Shown here one piece after another: positions 8,431-59,172 of a stretch of 64,000 nucleotides of DNA (position 1 is its first letter; each line of letters begins with the position of its first letter). The notes under the pieces are model-generated. The model searched no databases and had not been told where the DNA came from. It saw only the letters and a list, made by a program, of their open reading frames with translations. Origin of the DNA: Stegostoma tigrinum (lineage: Eukaryota); assembly GCF_030684315.1 (NCBI RefSeq), contig NC_081375.1, positions 37,554,068 to 37,618,067 of the forward strand, written 5' to 3'. The position numbers and the translations under genes are program-made.

Positions 8431-8889
8431 CTGAGTCAATTATGACCGATTTCTGTTATTCTACAATTTTCAGCTATTAAAATCCAATCTTCTTGACAAA
8501 CAACCACTTTGGCTGCTTTTGACACAAAAATTGGAGATGTAGTAGACAGTGAAGGTTGCCTCAGAATACAATGGGATCTTGATCAAATGGTTCAATGGGC
8601 CAAGATGTGGTAGATGGAGTTTAATTTAGATAAATGTGAGTTGCTGCATTTTGGAAAGGCAAATCAGGGTAGGATTAATATACTTAATGGTAAGGTTGTG
8701 ATGAGTATTGCTGAATAAAGTGACCTTGGAGTGCAGGTTCATAGTTCCTTGAAAATGGAGTCGCAGGTAGATAGGATAGTAAAGATGGCATTTGGTATCA
8801 TTATCATCATAGAATCTAGCTTAACCTAATTGGTGAGTGCATTGAGTTTAAGTGTTAGGAGGTCATTTTGTGGCTCCATAGACTTGATT

Positions 8890-9282
8890 GTAGTGCCAGG
8901 AGATGCCGGCGCTTTGCAGTGATTGTGTGTTTCAGGAGTTGCAGGGAGAAACGCTTCTGAAGAATCTCAATGTTCTGAATGTAGACATTATCACGGTTGG
9001 GACCAAATTGGGAAGGCCTAAAAGTGGACTGTAGTCCATCAGTGATGATCCGGGTCTGTAGGCATGTACTAAGAAAGGTAATGTGGCTGTGGTACCTGGT
9101 TTTCTTCAGGATGTGGTCGAGCAGCTTTAGGGCCAAAGAGAACCTGAGCGAGTTCTGATGAAGGGTCTAGGCCCGAAATGTCAGCTTTCCTGCACCTCTG
9201 ATGCTGCTTGGCCTGCTGTGTTCATCCAACTCTACGTCTTGTTATCTCAGATTCCCCAGCATCTGCAGTTCCTATTATCTCT
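8890..9282. mobile_element. PLE fragments: ORF N-terminus (- strand, ~8890-9150) fused to a pLTR 3' end with tail (+ strand, ~9151-9282)
   Basis: ORF 8855..9136 contains HITFLSTCLQTRIITDGL, matching the PLE N-terminal FLxxC..I.P.GL motif; it is followed by the hammerhead-bearing terminus. Confidence 0.8.
9155..9182 (+). ncRNA. Minimal hammerhead ribozyme motif (C-to-U change in the ACGU palindrome)
   Basis: ctgatga-agggtctaggccc-gaaa-tgtc. Confidence 0.6.
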
Positions 9283-10003
9283 TGGGGGTGGGGAGTGCAG
9301 ATATTTGCAAGTAAAATGTTGGCGAGAAATTGGGAAGCCGTCAAAAATGAGGTAACAGGAGTCCAGAGACATCATGTCCCAATTAGAGTGAAGGGCAAGG
9401 CTAGTAGGTGAAGGGAATGCTGGATGACTAGAGAAATTAAGGTTTTGATCAATAAAAAGAAGGAACCAATGTCCTGTATAGCCACAAAATGACCTCCTAA
9501 CACCTAAACTCAATACACTCACCAGTTAGGTTAAGCTAGATTCTATGATGATAGTGATGATACCAAATGCCGTCTTTACTATCCTACCTACTTGCGACTC
9601 CATTTTCAAGGAACTATGAACCTGCACTCCAAGGTCACTTTATTCAGCAATACTCATCACAACCTTACCATTAAGTATATTAATCCTATCCCGATTTGCC
9701 TTTCCAAAATGTAGCAACTCACATTTATCTAAATTAAACTCCATCTACCACATCTTGGCCCATTGAACCATTTGATCAAGATCCAATTGTATTCTGAGGC
9801 AACCTTCACTGTCTACTACATCTCCAATTTTTGTGTCAAAAGCAGCCAAAGTGGTTGTTTGTCAAGAAGATTGGATTTTAATAGCTGAAAATTGTAGAAT
9901 AACAGAAATCGGTCATAATTGACTCAGACCTTTGCTGGTTGGGCCTGCATTTATAGCTGATCCCTAGCTGCTCTGGAGAAGGTGGTGGCGAGCTGCCTTC
10001 TGG

Positions 10004-10460
10004 TCTTCAGCTCTTGTGCTCCTCTGATGCTGCTATGTTCATCCAGCTCTACATCTTGTTATCTCAGATTCTCCAGCATCTGTAGTTCCTACTATCTCTG
10101 TCACAATTTTAACCCCACTGCGAAGCCTCTTCTAAAGATGCGTACCTTGAAGAAGTTGCCCTCCTCACTTTGAAAAGAATTCAGTGGATCTCTCTCCTAC
10201 TGCATTTCTCTCGTAATCTCTTCGGCCTTGAAACTGCTCGACCACGTCCTGAAGCCAAACAGATACTACACTACCTTTCTTAGCACATGCCTCCAGACCC
10301 GGATCATCCCCAATGGACTGCAGTCCACATTTAGGCCTTCCCAATTTGGTCCCAACAGTGACAATGTCTACATTCAGAACATTGAGATCCTTCAGAAGCT
10401 TTTCTCCCTGCAACTCCTGAAGCACACACTCGCAGCAATGCGCCAGCATCTCTGGCACTA
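10004..10460 (+). mobile_element. PLE fragment: pLTR end and tail reading directly into the ORF N-terminus
   Basis: tgttcatccagctctac...cctactatctct continues into ORF 10228..10461 (TFLSTCLQTRIIPNGLQSTFRPSQFG). Confidence 0.8.
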
Positions 10461-10509
10461 ACATCCACACCCAATCAACTTTTGAAAGCTCATGCCTAAT
10501 ACTGTCAAA

Positions 10510-14148: not shown

Positions 14149-15336
14149 GAGGCAGGGTTAGAGCCAGTGAAGGTGATTGTAGGTGGGGAGTTAGGGAGGG
14201 GATAGGTCAGTCCAGAGAGGATGGACAGGCCGGTGGGGGCGGGGGGTGGGGGGGGGGGGTTGCAGATGAGATTAGTGGGTAGGACATCGGGATGGGGCTT
14301 GAGGTGGGAGGAATGGTTAGGGAGGTGGGGACCAGCTGGTTTTGGGATGTGATCGGGGGAGGGGAGATTTTGAAGCTTGAAAAGTCCCCATTGATACCCT
14401 GGGGCTGCAGGGTTCCCAAGCGAAATATGAGTTGCTGTTCCTGCATCTTTCTGGTGGCATCATTGTGGCAGTGCAGGAGGCCCAGGGTGGACATGTCATC
14501 CGAGGAGTTGGGGGGGCAGAGTTGAAATGGTTCGCGACTGGGAGGTGCAGTTGTTTGTTGTGAACCGAGTGTAGGTGTTCCTCAAAGCAATCCCCAAGCC
14601 TCCACTTGGTTTCCCCGATGTAGAGGAGGCCACAACGGGAACAGCGGATACAGTATATAACATTAACAGATGTGCAGGTGAACATCTGTTTGATGTGAAA
14701 AGTCTTCTTAGGGCCTGGGATCGGGGTGAGGGGAGAGGTATAGGGGCAGGTGTAGCACTTGCTTCAGTTGCAGGGAAAAGTGCCGGGGGTGGTGTGGCTG
14801 GAGGGGAGTGTGGAGCGGACAAGGGAGTCATGGGGAGAGTGGTCCCTCCGGTCGACCGTGTCTCCCGTACTTCCCACAACTCATCGCTCACACCCCCTCC
14901 CCGCAATAATAACCAAAACAGAATACCCCTTGTCCTCACGTACCACCCCACCAACTTCAAAATCCAATGCATCATCCTCCGACATTTCCGCCATCTGCAA
15001 TCTGACCCCACCACCAAAGACATTTTTCCTCCCCACCCTTATGTGCTTTCCGGAGGGACCACTCTCCCTACATTCACCTTCACTGGCTGTAACCCCGCCG
15101 CTTTGACCTTTCCATCTCCTCTCACCCTATCTTCTCCTTTATCCATCTTCTATCCGCCTCCCCCATCTCCCTATTTATTTCAGAATCTCTTTCCCCTCCC
15201 CCATTTCTGAGGAAGGGTCTTGACCCGAAACGTCAAACTTTCCTGCTCCTCTGATGCTGTTTGGCCTGCTGTGTTCATCCAGCTTCACACCGTGTTATCT
15301 CAGATTCCCCAGCATCAGCGGTTCCCACTATCTCTG
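14149..15336. mobile_element. Rearranged Penelope-like element (Neptune-type): GIY-YIG region on -, linker and pLTR on +
   Basis: ORF 14317..14685 FTCTSVNVIYCIRCSRCGLLYIGETKWRLGDCFEEH; ORF 14207..14494 EQQLIFRLGTLQPQGIN; + strand RIPLVLTYHP; ends with the tail ttcccactatctct. Confidence 0.9.
15207..15234 (+). ncRNA. Minimal hammerhead ribozyme (PLE type)
   Basis: ttt-ctgagga-agggtcttgaccc-gaaacgtc-aaa: intact core, GGGU/ACCC stem II, ACGU palindrome, UUU/AAA stem I. Confidence 0.75.
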
Positions 15337-16094
15337 ACCCAAAATTTGGAGATCATTTGGGGATAATTTGGAGATTTTGAGATTTCGCTTTTTAGTTTAG
15401 CACTAGCGAAACCTTTATTCCAGACTTGACTCTATCGTTGTACCTGCCAGGATCTCAACAATAGGATCCACTCCCTCCCATTGCAAATGCCTTCTTCAGC
15501 TCACAGCAGCTTTCCAACACAAATTCTGAACCCTTGCTCGCAGTTGCAGGGAATTGTGTCTATCCACCTGACTATGCTGTCCCATCTTGCCACTACAATC
15601 CTGTTAGCTGCTCCTGCTTTAATAATTTCCTTACCACGCAGTGTGGTCGTTCTTCACCAGCTTAAGCAGTGAAATAACATTAAGTAAATGGTGAAAAAGA
15701 CAATGCGTGCAAAATATGAGCACAACTTGGAAATGTTGGTAATGAATATAATTTTGTATCAAAATCAATCTCAGCTTCAAGAAAGTGACGAAAAGTTGAT
15801 ATAAATTCGAATTTTGTTTTACCATTGTTGACAGTACTGTTGGTAAAAATCATTAAGTTGTTCTTTAAAGTCAAGAAAGGAATACTGCCACCTTCTGACG
15901 GTAGCTTGGTAATGGCAAAAACAATGGAAAAACTGAAGTGAGATTATGGCATTCTCTTTACATTGCGCTTCATGTTGATGGATGAGTTGATAAAATGCTA
16001 TTTGGAGCAGTATCTTATGACGAAGAATAGTTTTTGGAATTGCTTAAAATGTATTAACGGTAACTTCAACGCTCTTCAAAAATCTTATTTATGA

Positions 16095-19655: not shown

Positions 19656-19951
19656 TGAGTTTCAACTCAGATTTCTGACCCCACGCTACCAAATCACATC
19701 GGTCTGCCTCTGGACAGATTTAGGTCTGACTATCACACCTATTCCAAGGCATTCTGCCTTATTCTAAATTAAAATAACCAGTTGAAAACACAATTGTCTT
19801 AGAAGGTGTCAAATTTGTGACTTCATACAGAACACAAAGTTAATGGATTTTGTTGCTAATATTGAGACAATCCATTCTGCTGCCTTAATTAATAAAATGT
19901 GAGGCTGGATGAACACAGCAGGCCAAGCAGCATCTCAGGAGCACAAAAGCT

Positions 19952-19979
19952 GACGTTTCGGGCCTAGACCCTTCATCAG
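19952..19979 (-). ncRNA. Minimal hammerhead ribozyme (intact core)
   Basis: Reverse complement reads ctgatga-agggtctaggccc-gaaacgtc. Confidence 0.75.
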
Positions 19980-20203
19980 AGAGGGGGATGGGGAGAGGGA
20001 ACTGGAATAAATAGGGAGAGAGGGGGAGGCAGACCGAAAATGGAGAGTAAAGAAGATAGGTGGAGAGAGTATAGGTGGGGAGGTAGGGAGGGGATAGGTC
20101 AGTCCAGGGAAGACGGACAGGTCAAGGAGGTGGGATGAAGTTAGTAGGTAGATGGGGGTGCGACTTGGGGTGGGAGGAAGGGATGGGTGAGAGGAAGAAC
20201 CGG

Positions 20204-20920
20204 TTAGGGAGGCAGAAACAGGTTGGACTGGTTTTGGGATGCAGTGGGTGGGGGGGAAGAGCTGGGCTGGTTGTGTGGTGCAGTGGGGGGAGGGGACGAA
20301 CTGGGCTGGTTTAGGGATGCAGTTGGGGAAGGGGAGATTTTGAAACTGGTGAAGTCCACATTGATACCATTAGGCTGCAGGGTCCCCAGGCGGAATATGA
20401 GTTGCTGTTCCTGCAACCTTCGGGTGGCATCATTGTGGCAGTGCAGGAGGCCCATGATGGACATGTCATCTAGAGAATGGGAGGGGGAGTGGAAATGGTT
20501 TGCGACTGGGAGGTGCAGTTGTTTGTTGCGAACTGAGCGGAGGTGTTCTGCAAAGCGGTCTCAAAGCCTCCGCTTGGTTTCCCCAATGTAGAGGAAGCCA
20601 CACCGGGTACAGTGGATGCAGTATACCACATTGGCAGATGTGCAGGTGAACCTCTGCTTAATGTGGAATGTCATCTTGGGGCCTGGGATAGGGGTGAAGG
20701 AGGAGGTGTGGGGGCAAGTGTAGCATTTCCTGCGGTTGCAGGGGAAGGTGCCGGGTGTGGTGGGGTTGGAGGGCAGTGTGGAGCGAACAAGGGAGTCACG
20801 GAGAGAGTGGTCTCTCCGGAAAGCAGACAGGGGTGGGGATGGAAAGATGTCTTGGGTGGTGGGGTCGGATTGTAAATGGCGGAAGTGTCGGAGGATGATG
20901 CGTTGTATCCAGAGGTTGGT
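20204..20920 (-). pseudogene. PLE Cys-rich linker and GIY-YIG endonuclease, 5'-truncated, with one in-frame nonsense codon
   Basis: GTFPCNRRKCYTCPH...NVVYCIHCTRCGFLYIGETKRRL*DRFAEH...EQQLIFRLGTLQPNGINVDF; TGA at 20563-20561 replaces Gly. Confidence 0.9.
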
Positions 20921-21221
20921 GGAATCACAACCAGCCCAGCTCTTCCCCCCCACCCACTGCATCCCAAAACCAGTCCAACCTGTCTCTGCCTCCCTAACCG
21001 GTTCTTCTTCTCACCCATCCCTTCCTCCCAACCCAAGCTGCACCCCCATCTACCTACTAACTTCATCCCACCTCCTTGACCTGTCCGTCTTCCCTGGACT
21101 GACCTATCCCCTCCCTACCTCCCCACCTATACTCTCTCCACCTATCTTCTTTACTCTCCATCTTCGGTCCGCCTCCCCCTCTCTCCCTATTTATTCCAGT
21201 TCCCTCTCCCCATCCCCCTCT

Positions 21222-21249
21222 CCGATGAAGGGTCTAGGCCCGAAACGTC
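21222..21249 (+). ncRNA. Minimal hammerhead ribozyme with a mutated core (CCGAUGA)
   Basis: ccgatga-agggtctaggccc-gaaacgtc. Confidence 0.6.
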
Positions 21250-21399
21250 AGCTTTTGTGCTCCTGAGATGCTGCTTGGCTTGCTGTGTTCATCCAGCCGC
21301 ACATTTTATTATCTTGGAATTCTCCAGCATCTGCAGTTCCCATTATCTCTGCTGCCTTAATTACTTCCTTTCACCCCCTTTGTCTATCAACTGTTCTCC

Positions 21400-39323: not shown

Positions 39324-39536
39324 AAGAGATAATAGGAACTGCACATGCTGGAGAATCAGATAACAGGGTGTAGAGCTGGATGAACACAACAGGCCAAGCA
39401 GCAACATACGATCAGGAAGGCTGACGTTTCTGACCTCGACCCTTCAGCAGACCCTTTGCTGAAGGGTCTCAGCCTTCCTGCTCCTATGATGCTTCTTGGC
39501 CTGCTGTGTTCATCCAGCTCTAAACCTTGTTATCTC
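39324..39536. mobile_element. Miniature fold-back PLE derivative (older copy)
   Basis: Tail agagataataggaactgc on the left; inverted arms agataacagggtgtagagctggatgaacac / gtgttcatccagctctaaaccttgttatct; hammerhead remnant at the centre. Confidence 0.85.
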
Positions 39537-41759
39537 TGATAATGGGCTTAGTTTGCATTTCTAAAAAAGGCGATTAGTACCTGGTCACGACATCAAAGCA
39601 ACATACTGTTTACTTTTGAAAGCTCTTGGCATCTGCTAAAACCACTGTATAGTGGAGTTGGAGTTGTTGGTGGAACATAAATATTTTGGAGAAAATGATC
39701 CAATGGCAGGAGGCATTTTTATCATGAAATTGGCGAAGGCCAATTTTTGCAGCATCATGAGTTCTGCAGGTTTGACACAACCATTCTCAAATGTGTCCTC
39801 ACCTATGACTTGTATTCCTGCCTTTGATGTAGTGCAATTGTTCTTTGGCAATTGCAATGCTCAGCTTCATTCACAAGTACTGCAAAGTAGTATCTAATGT
39901 CAAATTGTAGCAAGACCCTGACTATCTTGACTTTGACAAGTATCAAGCATTTCATATCAGCTAGAGCCTTCTCAAATATAAGCCCAGCAATTTTTTCCAT
40001 TATCTAAAATGCAGCACTGTTATTCAGTCTCTAGTTGTTACTTGTAAACATTACTTGCCTGATTTTTTTTGTTGTTGGTTGAGCTAAGCAGTGCACTGAT
40101 TGGGTCTCAGGAACAATGTCCACTCGCTGTTAGTGTACTGTGGCTGCAAAGCATACAGTACACAACTTGTGCCAAAATAAAGTTTTCTAAACTGCACCTC
40201 TGCCATCAAGATGGGCAAATTTGCAGGCCACTCAGATCCTTGAGTCTGATCTGATCTTGACTTTGCTTTGGTTTTTTTTTCCCCCCATGTTACCAAGATC
40301 CTCAACAACTCCTCTGCATCAAAATTCTGCCAGTCCCAATCTTGAATTTATTCACTGTCTTACACCATGGAACTGTGGGGATAAAAGAATTCCAAAATTT
40401 ATAACCCTCTGAGTAGAAAATTGCTCCATTACCATTTTAAACAGGTGACTACCTTTTTAGTCTGAAGTTGCACCTCAGCATTCTAGGTGGGAAATGTTCT
40501 CTTGGTATCTATCCTGTTGCACCCTGTCATAATTTGGGTTTTAGTAAGATCAGCTCTCAAGTACAAGGGTAATAACTTTGAGGACATCTTCGACCAAGTT
40601 GGCTTTATTGGGTACTGTTAACCAAGATTTTGCATAGGTACCTTATGTACCTAAGATGGCATTGGAAGTGGTAACTCTGTACGCTTTTCACAGTACTTCT
40701 GTACTTGAGTACATATGACAATAAACCTAACTATGCTTTAGGCTTCTGGTCCATATGCTGTAATTTCCTACTTAATGCCATTGAGAATATCATCAGTGCA
40801 AGGATGGAAGGTCCACAGTTACATTCTAGGGGGAGGAAAATACCACTGGCATTCTAGGAACAAATTAGTTAATTTAGTAATAATAGAAATTTCTGAAGAG
40901 TCTTTGCAAAGAGAACATCTGTGAACTTTGCTAAAATGAATATGGGCTAATGGAAATTTAAAAATAAATACCTTATTTCCTGTGTACAACTGAACTTGCT
41001 GAGGTCTCTTTGAAAGAGACCTGGGAGTGTTAAATGACTTGCACATGATGTTCTAATATTGTAACATAATACTATGGAAAGCTAGTAGGCAATTCAGTTA
41101 TATTACCAAAAAAATTTAATTAAAATGCCTGGAAGTTTTGGCAGAAACTCCAGGCTCAACCATGAGCAATATAGAGTTCATATCAGTGGCTATTTCACCA
41201 GCAGTGGGCACAGTAATGTAATGAAAATTTTCTGAAGGGCCCTGACCTTAAATGTCAACTTTCCTGCTCCTCTGCTATTGGCCTGCTGTGTTCCTTCAGC
41301 CCCATGTGATGTTGTTTCTGTTTGATTTGTCCGCACCAACCAGATATCCAAATCTGATCTAGTCTGATTTGCTAGCATTTAAGTCATATTCCTTTAACCC
41401 CTTCCTATTTACATACCCACCCAGGTGCTTAACAAATGTTGTAATTGCACCTGCCCTCCTTTTTTTGAGAAGATCTTTCCTGTCTCACCTTAAACCTATG
41501 CTGTCTTTTGGACTTGCCCACCCTAGGATAGAGACTTTGGCTATTGACCCTATCCATATCCCTCGTAACCTCTTAAAGGTCACCTGTCAGCCTCTCCCAC
41601 TCTTGGAAGTAGGCAAAAAGCCCCAGCCTATTCCACCTCCCTAAACTTGAACTCTCTAGTCTTGGCGGCATATATCCTTTTCTGCACTCTCTCTAAAAGT
41701 TTATTAAACTTAGCTCCACCATACAATTAGATAAAAGTAAAACGTGTGGGTTAGGACAT

Positions 41760-47363: not shown

Positions 47364-47780
<417 letters not shown>

Positions 47781-48625: not shown

Positions 48626-50830
48626 AATAACGTGCCACTTGTTAGCTAGTTTGTTGGGGTAAGGCTTCGACTAAACTTTGACCTTGACCAATTACCAATG
48701 GATGTACTGTCCATACATAATTTGACAGCTGATACAAGATATGCCTGTTTGCTTGTAGCAAAAGGGACAGATGGAAGAAGAAAGTTTTATGGTGGTGTCT
48801 AATTTTGGTATTTTGCTTGGAGAAAATTTGACCAGATAAGACAATACTAACTGAAGTTAGAAACCTGTTCCACTATCTATCTAGCATTCTGTCCTTTGAG
48901 AATAAAGACCAAAGTCTATTAGCTATGTGATGAATTGGTGAGTTCCAATGACCTTTCTAGAAAAGTATGTAGGGTATAGTTCCACTTTTGCTTGTCTTTT
49001 TGGTCACTTCTTGCTCTGACTTTTTTTGGGACTCACTTAGAGTCCCTTGCTGAATCTTTTGTCTATCAAACATGAAGTCTGCCATAAATGTTTGGGTAGC
49101 GTTTAAAAATACAACAAAAAAATTCCATTGAATTTTGAGCAGTAGCTTACTAAAGTAATTTTAATACAGTTTTAAAAACTCCTTTTGCCAAAAGGAAGAA
49201 AATGTTCAATAACCTGTGAATAACTCAATTTTTAAATTACTGGGAATAACTCTTAAAATATCCTTTTTAAAAAAAAATACATTATCCTTTTAAATTTAAG
49301 GATCTGTCCAATTTTCTTAACTTTTTAAAATGTTTAACATAACTTTATATACGATGCCTAAAATATCTAGTTTCATTCTTGGAGCCACCTAGAAGATCTG
49401 CAAACCCGCACAATTTGTGGAATCCCCCGAAAGTAATGGTCTCACCCATGAGCATGTGGGCGGAGTCTGCATATATCACCGTGGATGTCAGGCAACTACA
49501 GAGGATCACAAACAAGGTTACACTGTGTGCGATCTACACTGAATTCTGTCTTGTGCCATTTTTGCTGAAAGTTGGTGTATTTGAGTGGTAATTTCAGTCT
49601 GGTATCTTTTAATACCTCCATTTAGGAAAATAACAGTTTTAAATGTCATCAATACTTTAATTCTTAAGGCTTCAGTGATTTTACACTTGTTATGACAAAA
49701 GCAAGTTTAATTTGTGAATTTTGATTTCTCTTTTCAATAAACAGTGCGGTGTTTTTCAAATGCTTTAGGAGTGTCTTCCACCAGTGATGGTTATCATCTC
49801 CCCTCTTTTGCTGATTTTTGTAAAGTGGGTTGTTTTACAAAACATACGAATGTTTGAAACATTCTGATTTTGGTTCATTACTTCTACTTGTTGTTCCTCT
49901 GAAGCTCTGACTATTCCTGTTTGAAAACTTTTACAGCAAGTTGGCATGAAAAGTTATGCATTTAAATATTGCTCCAGGTTGAGTTGGAGTAAGTGCTTAC
50001 TCTTCAAAACAGTTAGTTATTATTTTTAGGTTATCTGTTTCTGTTGGATTGATTTGGTAATGGACCAATGACCATAATCAAGTAAATCCTGACTGCCTTT
50101 TCCCCTCCACACTGCTTTTATGATTATGCTTCAAAAAGTAATATGATCCAAATAACAGAAAATTAGTGGCTTGGCTTAATGTCTTCTGGCATTTGGAAAT
50201 CATAAGACATTTCGTTGCTCAGCTATAAACTAAAATTCATGGGTTACCATTGAAGAACTGTCTCCTTCAAAGTTGTCCTTTTTGCCATATTTAAACTGGT
50301 GACACGCAACAGAATTGGTTGAAACATTTGCATAATCATTCAACATCAGTTATCATACTTTAATGTAAGGACTACAACTGATTTAATGCACATGAATCTT
50401 TGTATCAGAATATCTTCATTTAGTCTTCCTTCCTGCTACGTAAGGTGTTCACATTTTTTGTAGGCCTGACTGTATTTTAAACCCAATTATGCCATAGGGA
50501 GTTAGTAGGTTGCTTAGAATCACCCCTGAAATGATGTCGGAAAATGAATGATGAACTTGGATCATTTTAGGAATTCCCCTCATGCGAGAAACTGACAGTC
50601 TTGAACTTTGCTGAATTGTTATTGTGTATTTAGACAGTGTTTGCATGCAAGATTGTTTGGTGTTGGTGTGGAGAGAGGCAGAATGTGTATTCTTGCCATC
50701 TGGAGATTAATAGACTTCACGAGTAGGAAGCCTGACACTACTTCTATTCTCTACCTGAAAAATTTCTTCTGAGATCAGCTGTAATGATGTGTTCTTGTAT
50801 TTCCATGTGAATGGCCATGTGTTGAATGGA

Positions 50831-51045
50831 AGAGATAATGGGAACTGCAGATGCTGGAGAATTCCAAGATAATAAAATGTGAGGCTGGATGAACACAGCA
50901 GGCCAAGCAGCATCTCAGGAGCACAAAAGCTGACGTTTCGGGCCTAGACCCTCTCTGATGAAGGGTCTAGGCCCGAAACGTCAGCTTTTGTGCTCCTGAG
51001 AAGCTGCTTGGCCTGCTGTGTTCATCCAGCCTCACATTTTATTAT
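50831..51045. mobile_element. Young miniature fold-back PLE derivative (84-bp arms, 9-nt loop, one-sided tail, TSD)
   Basis: Arms 50869-50952 and 50962-51045 with 1 mismatch; TSD tgttgaatggaagag at 50820-50834 and 51045-51059. Confidence 0.95.
50955..50982 (+). ncRNA. Minimal hammerhead ribozyme, sense to the myh10 pre-mRNA
   Basis: ctgatga-agggtctaggccc-gaaacgtc. Confidence 0.75.
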
Positions 51046-52317
51046 GTTGAATGGAAGAGTTGTTATCAATGATCCCAACCTGGCTGTTACTGTTCAAAAC
51101 AAAATAATGGCTTTGATCCTTGTTTTGAGTTTATAAACTGCAGTGGAAGGTCTGAGGGCCAGGAACAAAGTGTTTTTGGTTACAATTTTTTTCTCTAAAA
51201 TGTAAACCAGTTTCCAGGATATCATATTTGACTTTTTGCAAAAACTGTTTTTGAGCAAAAGCCTGGTAATTATTGAAGAAAATTTTCTGTAAGTGGATCT
51301 TTCTGGTTTGTCCTGATGGTGTGGAACTACAGCTTGTTGATTGTTAGCAATGACGCAGAGTGCCCAGTATTGGGCTAATTGAGACTGAAGCTCCAAGCTT
51401 CATTTGAATAGGGCTCCTGTGGCAACTGGCGTGCAGATCAGTAATTGTACCTGATCTCTGTGGCTCCTACTAATGAATTAATAATAGTACTATCATTTCA
51501 GTTTGGTTAGAGAGAAAGCATTATAATCCAGACCACAGTTATTCACAATTACAGAATAAACATGTTAAATGTAGTGACCTTTTCAATAGGTAAGGTGAGC
51601 TCATGTTGTCATTTTATTTTTTTAACGAGACTTGAATGTGGACTGGCAAGTGGTTGTTTTTCAAAGTAATGCAGATTGCCTTTTGTTCAGGTAATTAAAT
51701 AAGTTGACTTAAATCCAGTAAAGATCCTCAGCATTTTCAGGCATAAAGTGGGTCTTCTGGCCATGATGTGATTTGGGCCAGTGGCATAGATGCTATGGTG
51801 AAATAATATAGGGAGACACTTGGGTTTGCACAGTGAAGAGCTGTTGAGCTGAGGCTGCTTTTTTTTGAGACTAATTTTCTACTTAGTTTCGTTTAAAGCT
51901 TTGTCTTAAATTATTAGCTTTTGTTTTGAGTGACACTTGATAAGAATGCCAATTCTAAATGTATTTAGAATCATTTGTGGAAAAAATTCAAACAGCCTTG
52001 TCCATGGAAGTAATTCAGAAATAGTTATTGTGGATCTGCTGCCTTGAAAGTATACTTTTTGAAATTTTTATTTTTTAAAAATGAGATTTAGGTCTAGAGC
52101 AAGATGACGACTTTTTGACCAAACAGCATACCTGCAGCTCAACACAGTGCACCAGTTGGAAGATGACAGAATTTAAATCAGATACACTGGACTTCCAGTG
52201 AGAGTTAGGATTAAGCCTTGACTTGACTTGAAGTAGCTTTCTGCATCTGCAACAGTTAGACTTTTGGCACTACTCAGATGCTAACGGTGGTCTTATCATT
52301 TCAACCAAGCTGTGGCT

Positions 52318-58022: not shown

Positions 58023-59015
58023 GGAAAAAAAGTCTTGATGATCAAATGTTGAATGCTGTTGAGACAATATTAGAATGAATACTGTGTGGATAATGTTTTG
58101 AACATCCTTTCTCCCTTACCTGTTGAGTCCTCCATTCGCTGCTGTAGCGCCAGACTAGCATACAAATGGACTAGTCAAGTGCATGGTCGTTTTTTTTAAA
58201 AAAAGACCAAAAGCTATGTGTTTGGACTGAGGAAGAGGTTGTTACACTCTATTTAAATGCTCCAGTAGTGGCTTTATGCAAGTTGACTTTGGAGATGAAG
58301 TTTGGCTGTGCTTCAGCCTCCTTCTCCATGTCAGATGGGAACTTTTTGAAGTGTAAGTAGTGGGAAAACATTTGGATCAGATGCACTACTAAACCCGTGA
58401 AGAATTTTCAATGGCTTTTACTAAGTCACTAACTGCTTTATCAATATTTAGCAGTAAGCAGTAAATAATTCTCTCCAACATGGTTGACTTTTGGAATAGC
58501 AGAGAAAACTGTATTACTCAACGGGTTAAGGTTGATGCAAGGAAGTGTGGTGCAATTAGATGACGTCCACGTTTCATCCTGTGTGGTTCCAAATTTGTGG
58601 AAATGCCAAATGGTCAACTGAGAAGAAAAGACCTGTAATTAAGAAATTCTGGCAGTCACTATTCAGTTCTACAAAATCATTCATGTGTTTCTGGATTCTA
58701 AAACCAAGTTTTTTTCAGGGCAAAGTGTTTCAAAACTTGAATAATACTGATTTTTGAAGCCTTCCAAGCTATTCCCTTTTACTCTATGCTAGTCTGGTGC
58801 TTTGACTGGAGTGGATGGAGAAGGAAATAACACCTCATTTCCTTTTTTAAAGGAGACACATCTTTTAAAAAAAAGACTTTTAAAACTGTAAGCTTTTGTT
58901 TTTTATTAGTTGTGATCCTGTCCATAGGAACTCAAGCCAACATGCTTTCCCAAAAAAAGCAAAAAATAAATTCTCTCAAAGCTCTTAATGTTCCCTATTG
59001 TTTCTCTTGTTTTAG

Positions 59016-59172
59016 ACCTATTCTGGACTCTTCTGTGTGGTCATAAATCCATACAAGAATCTACCTATTTATGCTGAGCAAATTATTGAAATGTACAGGG
59101 GGAAAAAGCGACATGAGATGCCGCCGCACATCTATGCCATCTCTGAAAGTGCCTACAGAAGCATGTTGCAAG
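59016..59172 (+). CDS. myh10: Non-muscle myosin heavy chain IIB, second coding exon (157 nt)
   Basis: ttgttttag|ACC...[53 protein letters not shown]|GTAAGA; phase 0 join to the previous exon; absent from the ORF track. Confidence 0.97.

Follow-up and report, generated by a model that had tools for sequence, protein, structure and literature searches.

In a 64,000-nucleotide (nt) stretch of the Stegostoma tigrinum genome (RefSeq assembly GCF_030684315.1, contig NC_081375.1, positions 37,554,068 to 37,618,067 of the forward strand; here called the window), a palindromic insert displays the CUGAUGA box of a hammerhead ribozyme in its hairpin loop. Sequence comparison indicates that the insert is made of two truncated ends of a young 3.5-kb Penelope-like element (PLE), arranged head to head. 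The best overall explanation for the insert and for the junctions of its relatives is that two cDNAs, made in one event, ran off a capped RNA start and were joined, and we consider it moderately probable. The object in the window is of a known insertion type; what is informative are the junction statistics of the family. Published work is cited by accession.

The insert and its variable junctions

Element positions are counted from the C of CUGAUGA; position 0 is window position 50955, which puts the predicted cut of the hammerhead between +27 and +28. The geometry of the palindrome given in the original prediction is confirmed in every part. Identical 15-bp direct repeats, which form the left (50820–50834) and right (51045–51059) target-site duplications, bracket an insert of about 210 bases, and the last 4 nt of the left repeat also match the end of the element tail. 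This tail is found on one side only and has 38 nt (50831/50835–50868, minus strand). It represents about +91 to +127 of the element, presumably the stretch between two reverse transcriptase (RT) start sites, as suggested by the bimodal 3′ ends of arms in the family and by the meaning given to the tail in PMC11167929. Two arms of 84 bp each follow (50869–50952 and 50962–51045), with a single mismatch (50912/51002) and a 9-nt loop between them (50953–50961), which contains CUGAUGA at 50955–50961. The folding z-score of the insert is −24.8, and none of 200 shuffled sequences folds equally well.

The two arms differ in extent at the junction. The tail-bearing arm (50869–50952, minus strand) comprises element positions +7 to +90 and does not have CUGAUGA. 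The tail-less arm (50949–51045, plus strand) comprises −6 to about +90 and carries the whole hammerhead core. Because the tail arm halts at +7 and the other arm extends to −6, each holds sequence that the other lacks, and neither can be a copy of the other. The arms overlap by a 4-nt microhomology, CCCT (50949–50952), common to both at the junction. In the parent element CCCT and AGGG flank CUGAUGA and pair with each other; a join at CCCT/AGGG therefore places CUGAUGA in the loop.

Derivation from a Penelope element, as had been proposed, is supported by matches of both arms to the natural full-length copy L071, with 84/84 identical bases for the tail-bearing arm and 95/96 for the tail-less arm over −6 to +89. 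By these identities the window insertion is young. A 38-mer from the arm has 63,982 + 64,086 = 128,068 exact matches in the 3.2-Gb genome, and the reversed control has none. Copy L071 is complete and has the partial-tandem form, with two hammerhead boxes 3,528 nt apart, the upstream copy being truncated at about −51; its long open reading frame (ORF) starts at +166. The first AUG after the putative RNA start, at +3 of L071, lies within CUGAUGA and opens a 13-codon upstream ORF. Another copy, L077 (1582–4053, minus strand), is 5′-truncated, and its 824 codons are open across the RT and endonuclease regions into the pseudo-long terminal repeat (pLTR), which may be taken as a sign of recent activity. 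The 824-aa frame matches Pfam RVT_1 with an E value of 4.4e-5; at 23.7 bits the match stays under the curated cut-off, which is 29.6. YIDD and DKG motifs are visible. The match of the parent protein to Pfam GIY-YIG is weak (E 0.093, 13.5 bits, cut-off 22.6), with a YIGET motif at the expected place. L077 and other copies show a C-x4-C-x2-C linker; the Neptune clade is defined by a linker of the form CX2-5CxxC that separates RT from the endonuclease (PMC8557442). The parent, assembled by extending copies upstream, thus appears to be an endonuclease-positive (EN+) PLE, of Neptune type as judged from the linker motif.

Junctions were compared in a breakpoint sample that comprises the window, 32 loci of 10 kb each placed at round-number positions, and 77 merged stretches surrounding the exact matches that come first on contig C1. 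It held 185 arms at ≥88% identity, 26 of them in the randomly chosen loci; boundaries past about −340 are lumped by the alignment limit. The set of best-hit copies was left out of the breakpoint counts, as it selects junctions that resemble the query. The 3′ ends of the 185 arms are bimodal, near +89–94 and +124–130. Among 40 close head-to-head pairs, the tail is on exactly one arm in 37, on both in two and on neither in one; at the junction, the tail arm falls short of its partner in 18 pairs, exceeds it in 11, and equals it in 8. By a crude test, 36 of the 40 pairs share a flank of 7–18 nt. Junction overlaps of 4 nt are found in 7/40 pairs, and many junctions hold extra bases.

The exact junction of the window is found in 269 exact copies genome-wide. 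Of 31 copies with this junction, 18 have the tail on the loop arm and 11 have it on the other arm; one copy has two tails and one has none. At least three subfamily backgrounds are represented. Since the tail may be on either arm and several subfamilies are involved, this junction appears to have arisen many times, and descent from a single founder is rejected by the same subfamily backgrounds. Arms of one pair share subfamily letters in 34/40 pairs, and a few pairs, at loci 235 and 243, combine arms of two subfamilies; it should be noted that a fold-back of one molecule predicts such sharing likewise, which counts against the reading given here. We hold it very likely that the palindrome is built anew at each insertion.

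Ends of the arms and probable ends of the template RNA

The 5′ ends of the arms are concentrated next to CUGAUGA: 75 of the 185 arms end at −6 to +8 vs 6 at −60 to −7, a 45-fold difference per base, and among the 26 arms from random loci the corresponding numbers are 9 and 0. The expectation that fold-back points cluster near this box is therefore borne out, and breakpoints spread at random, which would have spoken against it, are not what is found; there is a sharp stop at −4 and a second spike at +28. Genome-wide counts of arms that depart from the parent at both of the two bases upstream are 56 at −10, 1,584 at −5, 3,516 at −4 and 1,450 at 0. The start of the template RNA is the better explanation for this cluster. 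Position −4 (window position 50951, plus strand) is the sharp edge of 5′ ends in the family and a likely capped start with a TCT-type initiator; this is a property of the family, and the window arm itself reads past −4 to −6, through the microhomology.

Among the first 100 rows listed for −4, 71 have G as the base directly before the edge, vs 33/100 at −5, 25/100 at 0 and 28 of the 56 rows at −10, all counted by eye. G makes up 21% of the genome sample, and the excess at −4 over the control positions has P values from 1e-10 to 0.015. In L1 insertions an untemplated 5′ G is recognised as the mark left by a copied cap, and there the extra G is likewise found at full-length 5′ ends (PMC9341517). 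Of 30 loci that were read in context by eye, 22 have the G, and in 11 it is unexplained by the target or by the partner arm. From −5 the parent reads C-C-T-C-T-C-T, which matches the human TCT (polypyrimidine) initiator consensus YC+1TYTYY (PMC5580651) at 7/7 positions with C+1 at −4, although such a match is weak alone within a pyrimidine tract. Transcription of the Drosophila Penelope begins within the pLTR (PMC2377424). Two other sources were considered and rejected: a splice acceptor does not account for the −4 edge, as no AG precedes it, and a parental G does not account for the G, as the parental base before −4 is C in 67/69 long arms. A capped RNA start at −4 is, in our judgment, fairly probable.

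Several points weigh against this start site. The patterns used genome-wide vary in length and CpG content, and their counts are comparable only roughly. Relative to the −10 control, the excess of G is modest (P 0.015–0.018), G is also found before +29 in 47/100 listed rows, counted by eye, and in 11 of the 22 G cases read in context the G could derive from target or partner sequence. Thus the controls for the G excess at −4 are not clean, and stalling of RT, which is weighed below, is a rival. In addition, the ends proposed for the RNA, both at −4 and at +28, are read from junctions in DNA.

The second spike of 5′ ends is at the predicted ribozyme cut. Exactly at +28 end 10 of the 185 arms, and the genome-wide counts are 663 at +27, 2,753 at +28 and 557 at +29. 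On the 4-mer at +28, perfect palindromes number 20 in the first 105 Mb of C1; the +55 4-mer has 3 in 188 Mb and the +23 4-mer has 2 in 194 Mb. Perfect joins at +28 are then about 12 and 18 times denser than on the two other self-complementary 4-mers, and therefore microhomology alone is not a sufficient explanation. In locus L214 (780–1275), an inverted arm is followed by eight direct units that begin at +28 or +27, with variable linkers of 0–2 nt; this array suggests repeated run-off and template jumping.

The hammerhead of the window (50953–50984, plus strand), as judged from sequence, from folding and from a published descriptor (PMC4209133), would be a minimal type I ribozyme with a 2-bp helix I, CUGAUGA, a bulged A, a 4-bp helix II, GAAA and a palindromic ACGU. 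The predicted cut falls after 50982, as had been anticipated. The earlier description of an intact minimal hammerhead holds for the core and helix II only, i.e., CUGANGA/GAAA, G10.1-C11.1, the bulged base before helix II and the palindromic 4-mer for dimer folding, all features that are shared with other metazoan PLE hammerheads. It does not hold for helix I, which has 2 bp both in the window and in the parent, whereas 4–5 bp are described for these ribozymes; a short helix I is also known from the Drosophila virilis variant (PMC4209133). Restoration of a full helix I by the fold-back was considered and rejected: some junctions give 4–6 bp, that of the window does not, and the long hairpin would dominate.

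The Rfam Hammerhead_3 model scores 17.7 bits on the window, with a cut-off of 48.5; an Rfam scan of the window at gathering level gave no match, and a scan by E value gave sub-cut-off matches to generic hairpins (miRNA) and a weak hammerhead. The short helix I is one of several points that argue against +28 as a product of cleavage. None of the 26 arms from random loci ends at +28. In 63 of the first 100 listed rows at +28 the joins are via the self-complementary AGCT, which end-joining favours anyway, and the remaining non-palindromic ends, about 1,000, exceed their neighbors by 1.5–1.8-fold only. Of the 7 linkers inside L214, 3 have the +27 base as their last one, a base that cut RNA would lack. 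Minimal hammerheads cleave poorly in vitro (PMC4209133), and for a lizard PLE no RNA reads were found that end at the hammerhead cut (PMC11167929). We consider it an even chance that the +28 ends mark the ribozyme cut site.

Coupled arms, proposed mechanism and alternatives

When arms are called short if their 5′ end is at −15 or further in, and long if it is further upstream, 63 head-to-head pairs divide into 46 short/short, 15 long/long and only 2 mixed (Fisher P 1e-12). The count excludes arms below 85% identity or cut by a locus edge, and at least one mixed and several long/long pairs were lost in this way. Long pairs are strongly asymmetric, in both directions. The coupling fits two cDNAs primed at the same RNA end. 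Of the 40 close pairs, 34 are short/short, which represents 68/185 arms; scaled from the arm matches, this gives by extrapolation roughly 20,000 mini-palindromes in the genome.

According to the mechanism that we propose, the protein of the element would nick both target strands about 15 bp apart, and one cDNA would be primed on each strand, one at each tail site. In vitro, a lizard PLE protein nicks both strands, which are then extended, and starts at two internal sites that bound the tail (PMC11167929). The mRNA would contain the tail sites in two copies. Where the copy close to the 5′ end is used for priming, both cDNAs would run off, at lengths of about 95 and 130 nt, and a mini-palindrome would result; priming at the 3′ copy would give two long, randomly truncated arms. 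The RNA would begin at the C 4 nt before CUGAUGA, the extra G being the copied cap. The cDNA ends would lose a few bases and would then be joined, in the window copy via the 4-nt CCCT. The few per cent of arms that end at +28 may derive from templates that the hammerhead had cleaved beforehand. The resulting mini-palindrome is a probable dead end. That two cDNAs are made per insertion is, in our estimate, likely.

Some of the same observations may be read as RT stalling in place of RNA ends. The enzyme would pause on entering the folded hammerhead (+28) and at the C-rich tract (−4), the G would be an untemplated addition or microhomology, and the palindrome would still be built anew. The positions agree with this, as the ribozyme fold has its 3′ border at +28 and the C run begins at −4, and so do the raised G at the −10 and +29 controls and the +27 base included in some L214 linkers. 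However, the −4 edge is very sharp (56 at −10 vs 3,516), the G excess peaks on precisely that base, and stalling at the 3′ copy would let one arm read through, but only the 2 mixed pairs out of 63 are of this kind. Stalling is unlikely. Self-priming, whereby one cDNA or antisense template folds back at a small palindrome and copies itself, has been proposed in print for rotifer Penelope elements (PMC3846280), and it would account for the short inverted matches common at junctions, among them the overlaps of 4, and for the shared subfamily letters. It is quite improbable here, as in the 18 pairs with the shorter tail arm, including the window copy, each arm has sequence that the other lacks; long pairs are asymmetric in both directions, a few pairs mix subfamilies, and many junctions have extra bases.

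Two further alternatives concern the source of the copies. Short capped transcripts of solo pLTR copies could be mobilised in trans, in the manner of short interspersed elements (SINEs). There are more than 100,000 arms, many with upstream sequence that might drive transcription, and the short/short coupling would fit equally well; but some arms that start at the hotspot run past the tail into the element body (L025/L026, L213 and L215), and a template for the lizard protein must include about 170 nt of ORF sequence (PMC11167929), which copies that terminate at the tail do not have. The proposal is distinctly improbable. Very improbable, in our view, is that the palindrome is a miniature inverted repeat transposable element (MITE)-like, non-autonomous unit, copying as such, with an antisense lock that keeps the ribozyme off in introns, as in the original prediction. 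The 269 copies with the exact junction would agree with this, and the hairpin does exclude the ribozyme fold. However, among the 31 copies this junction varies in tail side, arm end and subfamily, and junction offsets differ between insertions. A MITE identity is rejected on these grounds, as there is neither one internal structure nor fixed ends. With regard to the two mutually exclusive folds that were to act as a switch, folding shows that forcing the hammerhead fold costs 49.7 kcal/mol in the full insert and 10.8 in a lone arm, and a gap of about 50 kcal/mol in favor of the hairpin is too large for a switch. Arms without a close inverted partner are the majority, 105/185 (37 of these 105 are short), full-core arms being common among them, and therefore nothing suggests that a lock is required. 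Two run-off cDNAs joined in one event is the explanation that we prefer over these four.

Setting of the insert and comparison with known elements

The exon at 47376–47720 (plus strand) is best matched by Myosin-10, with 227 bits vs 187 for Myosin-11, and the next myh10 exon is near 59016, also on the plus strand. The insert lies in the myh10 intron that follows the first coding exon and ends near 59015; the host gene that was named earlier is upheld, and its numbering as intron 2 presumes a non-coding first exon. Contigs of four public runs (at most two samples of one study, possibly the source of the assembly itself) read from each unique flank into the insert, and no empty allele is seen among the joints listed for these contigs, most joints being outside the listing. 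The insert is probably an ordinary, inert Penelope stump, and as a by-product the myh10 pre-mRNA would contain a stable hairpin.

Other copies of the family are present in the window. A long head-to-head pair is found at 19890–21364 (−935 to +89 and −290 to about +143), and older copies of the same or related Penelope elements, with 75–88% identity and some with element body, are at 8880–10467, 14189–15337, 39325–39518 and 41233–41304. Outside the window, loci L025 and L026, about 6 Mb apart on contig C13, have flanks that are identical over the part compared and are a likely segmental duplication; their tail arm runs into the body. Tandem arrays of arm pieces, with periods of about 50, 46 and 208 bp, are seen at L103 and L111 (C1 near 2,476,300 and 2,865,500), on C1 near 187,870,000 and on C2 near 58,043,000. 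A possible splice acceptor is found at −33 to −24 (e.g., L037 and L039), after a long pyrimidine tract and about 25 nt upstream of CUGAUGA; no intron-less copy for this candidate was seen in the sample.

An inverted pLTR with a one-sided tail of 30–40 bp and a target duplication is the standard Penelope insertion (PMC3846280, PMC8557442, PMC8969392). The insertions of EN+ PLEs that are described (PMC3846280, PMC8557442, PMC2377424) also share the head-to-head arrangement, the tail on one arm, target duplications of about 7–18 bp, the partial-tandem parent and the pLTR hammerhead. In those descriptions truncation is variable and inversion is attributed to self-priming, whereas here about a third of sampled arms are cut to about 95 and 130 nt, with sharp 5′ hotspots. 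In PAc, the Poseidon element of Anolis carolinensis (PMC11167929), two internal RT starts likewise bound the tail and both strands are nicked and extended. It differs from the parent described here, which has a Neptune-type linker and a long ORF that begins at +166 and not within the ribozyme as in PAc. A further shared feature is that most PAc templates are not hammerhead-cut. For PAc no RNA ends were seen at the cut, whereas in the present family it is a place where genomic junctions accumulate. In Schistosoma, pairs of hammerhead motifs are 100–700 bp apart on opposite strands (PMC4209133).

Non-LTR retrozymes (bioRxiv 10.64898/2026.07.22.740005) also descend from PLE pLTRs, are non-coding and carry a type I hammerhead, but they form head-to-tail arrays; this identity is rejected for the window copy, which is head-to-head with one complete core. 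A retrozyme-like array is present elsewhere in the genome, at L213 (1538–2795; C1 near 140,329,000), with eight head-to-tail units of 166 bp (0 to about +165), each with a hammerhead core; in these units there is no pairing between the bases that precede CUGAUGA and the bases that follow the cut. The likeness to MITEs is a superficial one of palindromes, and here there is no fixed internal sequence and there are no transposase ends. In L1 twin priming two primers are likewise used at one target, but there a segment is inverted and not duplicated, whereas here the same RNA segment would be copied twice. A search of the literature on PLE copies, with Repbase, Dfam, subscription papers and supplements outside its range, found no description of truncation hotspots at a start site or cut site, or of arm coupling.

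The family bears on two questions, the role of the hammerhead in EN+ PLEs, where its function has been called unclear (PMC8557442), and the origin of the inverted pLTR with its one-sided tail. Precise predictions follow from the junction statistics, namely a capped start at −4, an uncapped end at +28, and paired short cDNAs. The extrapolated 20,000 or more near-perfect hairpins would be a large source of double-stranded RNA in introns. More tentatively, and with somewhat less than even confidence, the stumps may be viewed as a fossil record of the Penelope RNA cycle, resolved to single bases, with a capped TCT start, ribozyme cuts in a few per cent of RNAs in the germ line that remove the cap, and inverted pLTRs that result when a single protein complex starts two cDNAs from the pair of tail sites at one RNA end. 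If true, this would be in vivo evidence for hammerhead cleavage in PLEs and a direct explanation of their inverted-repeat architecture.

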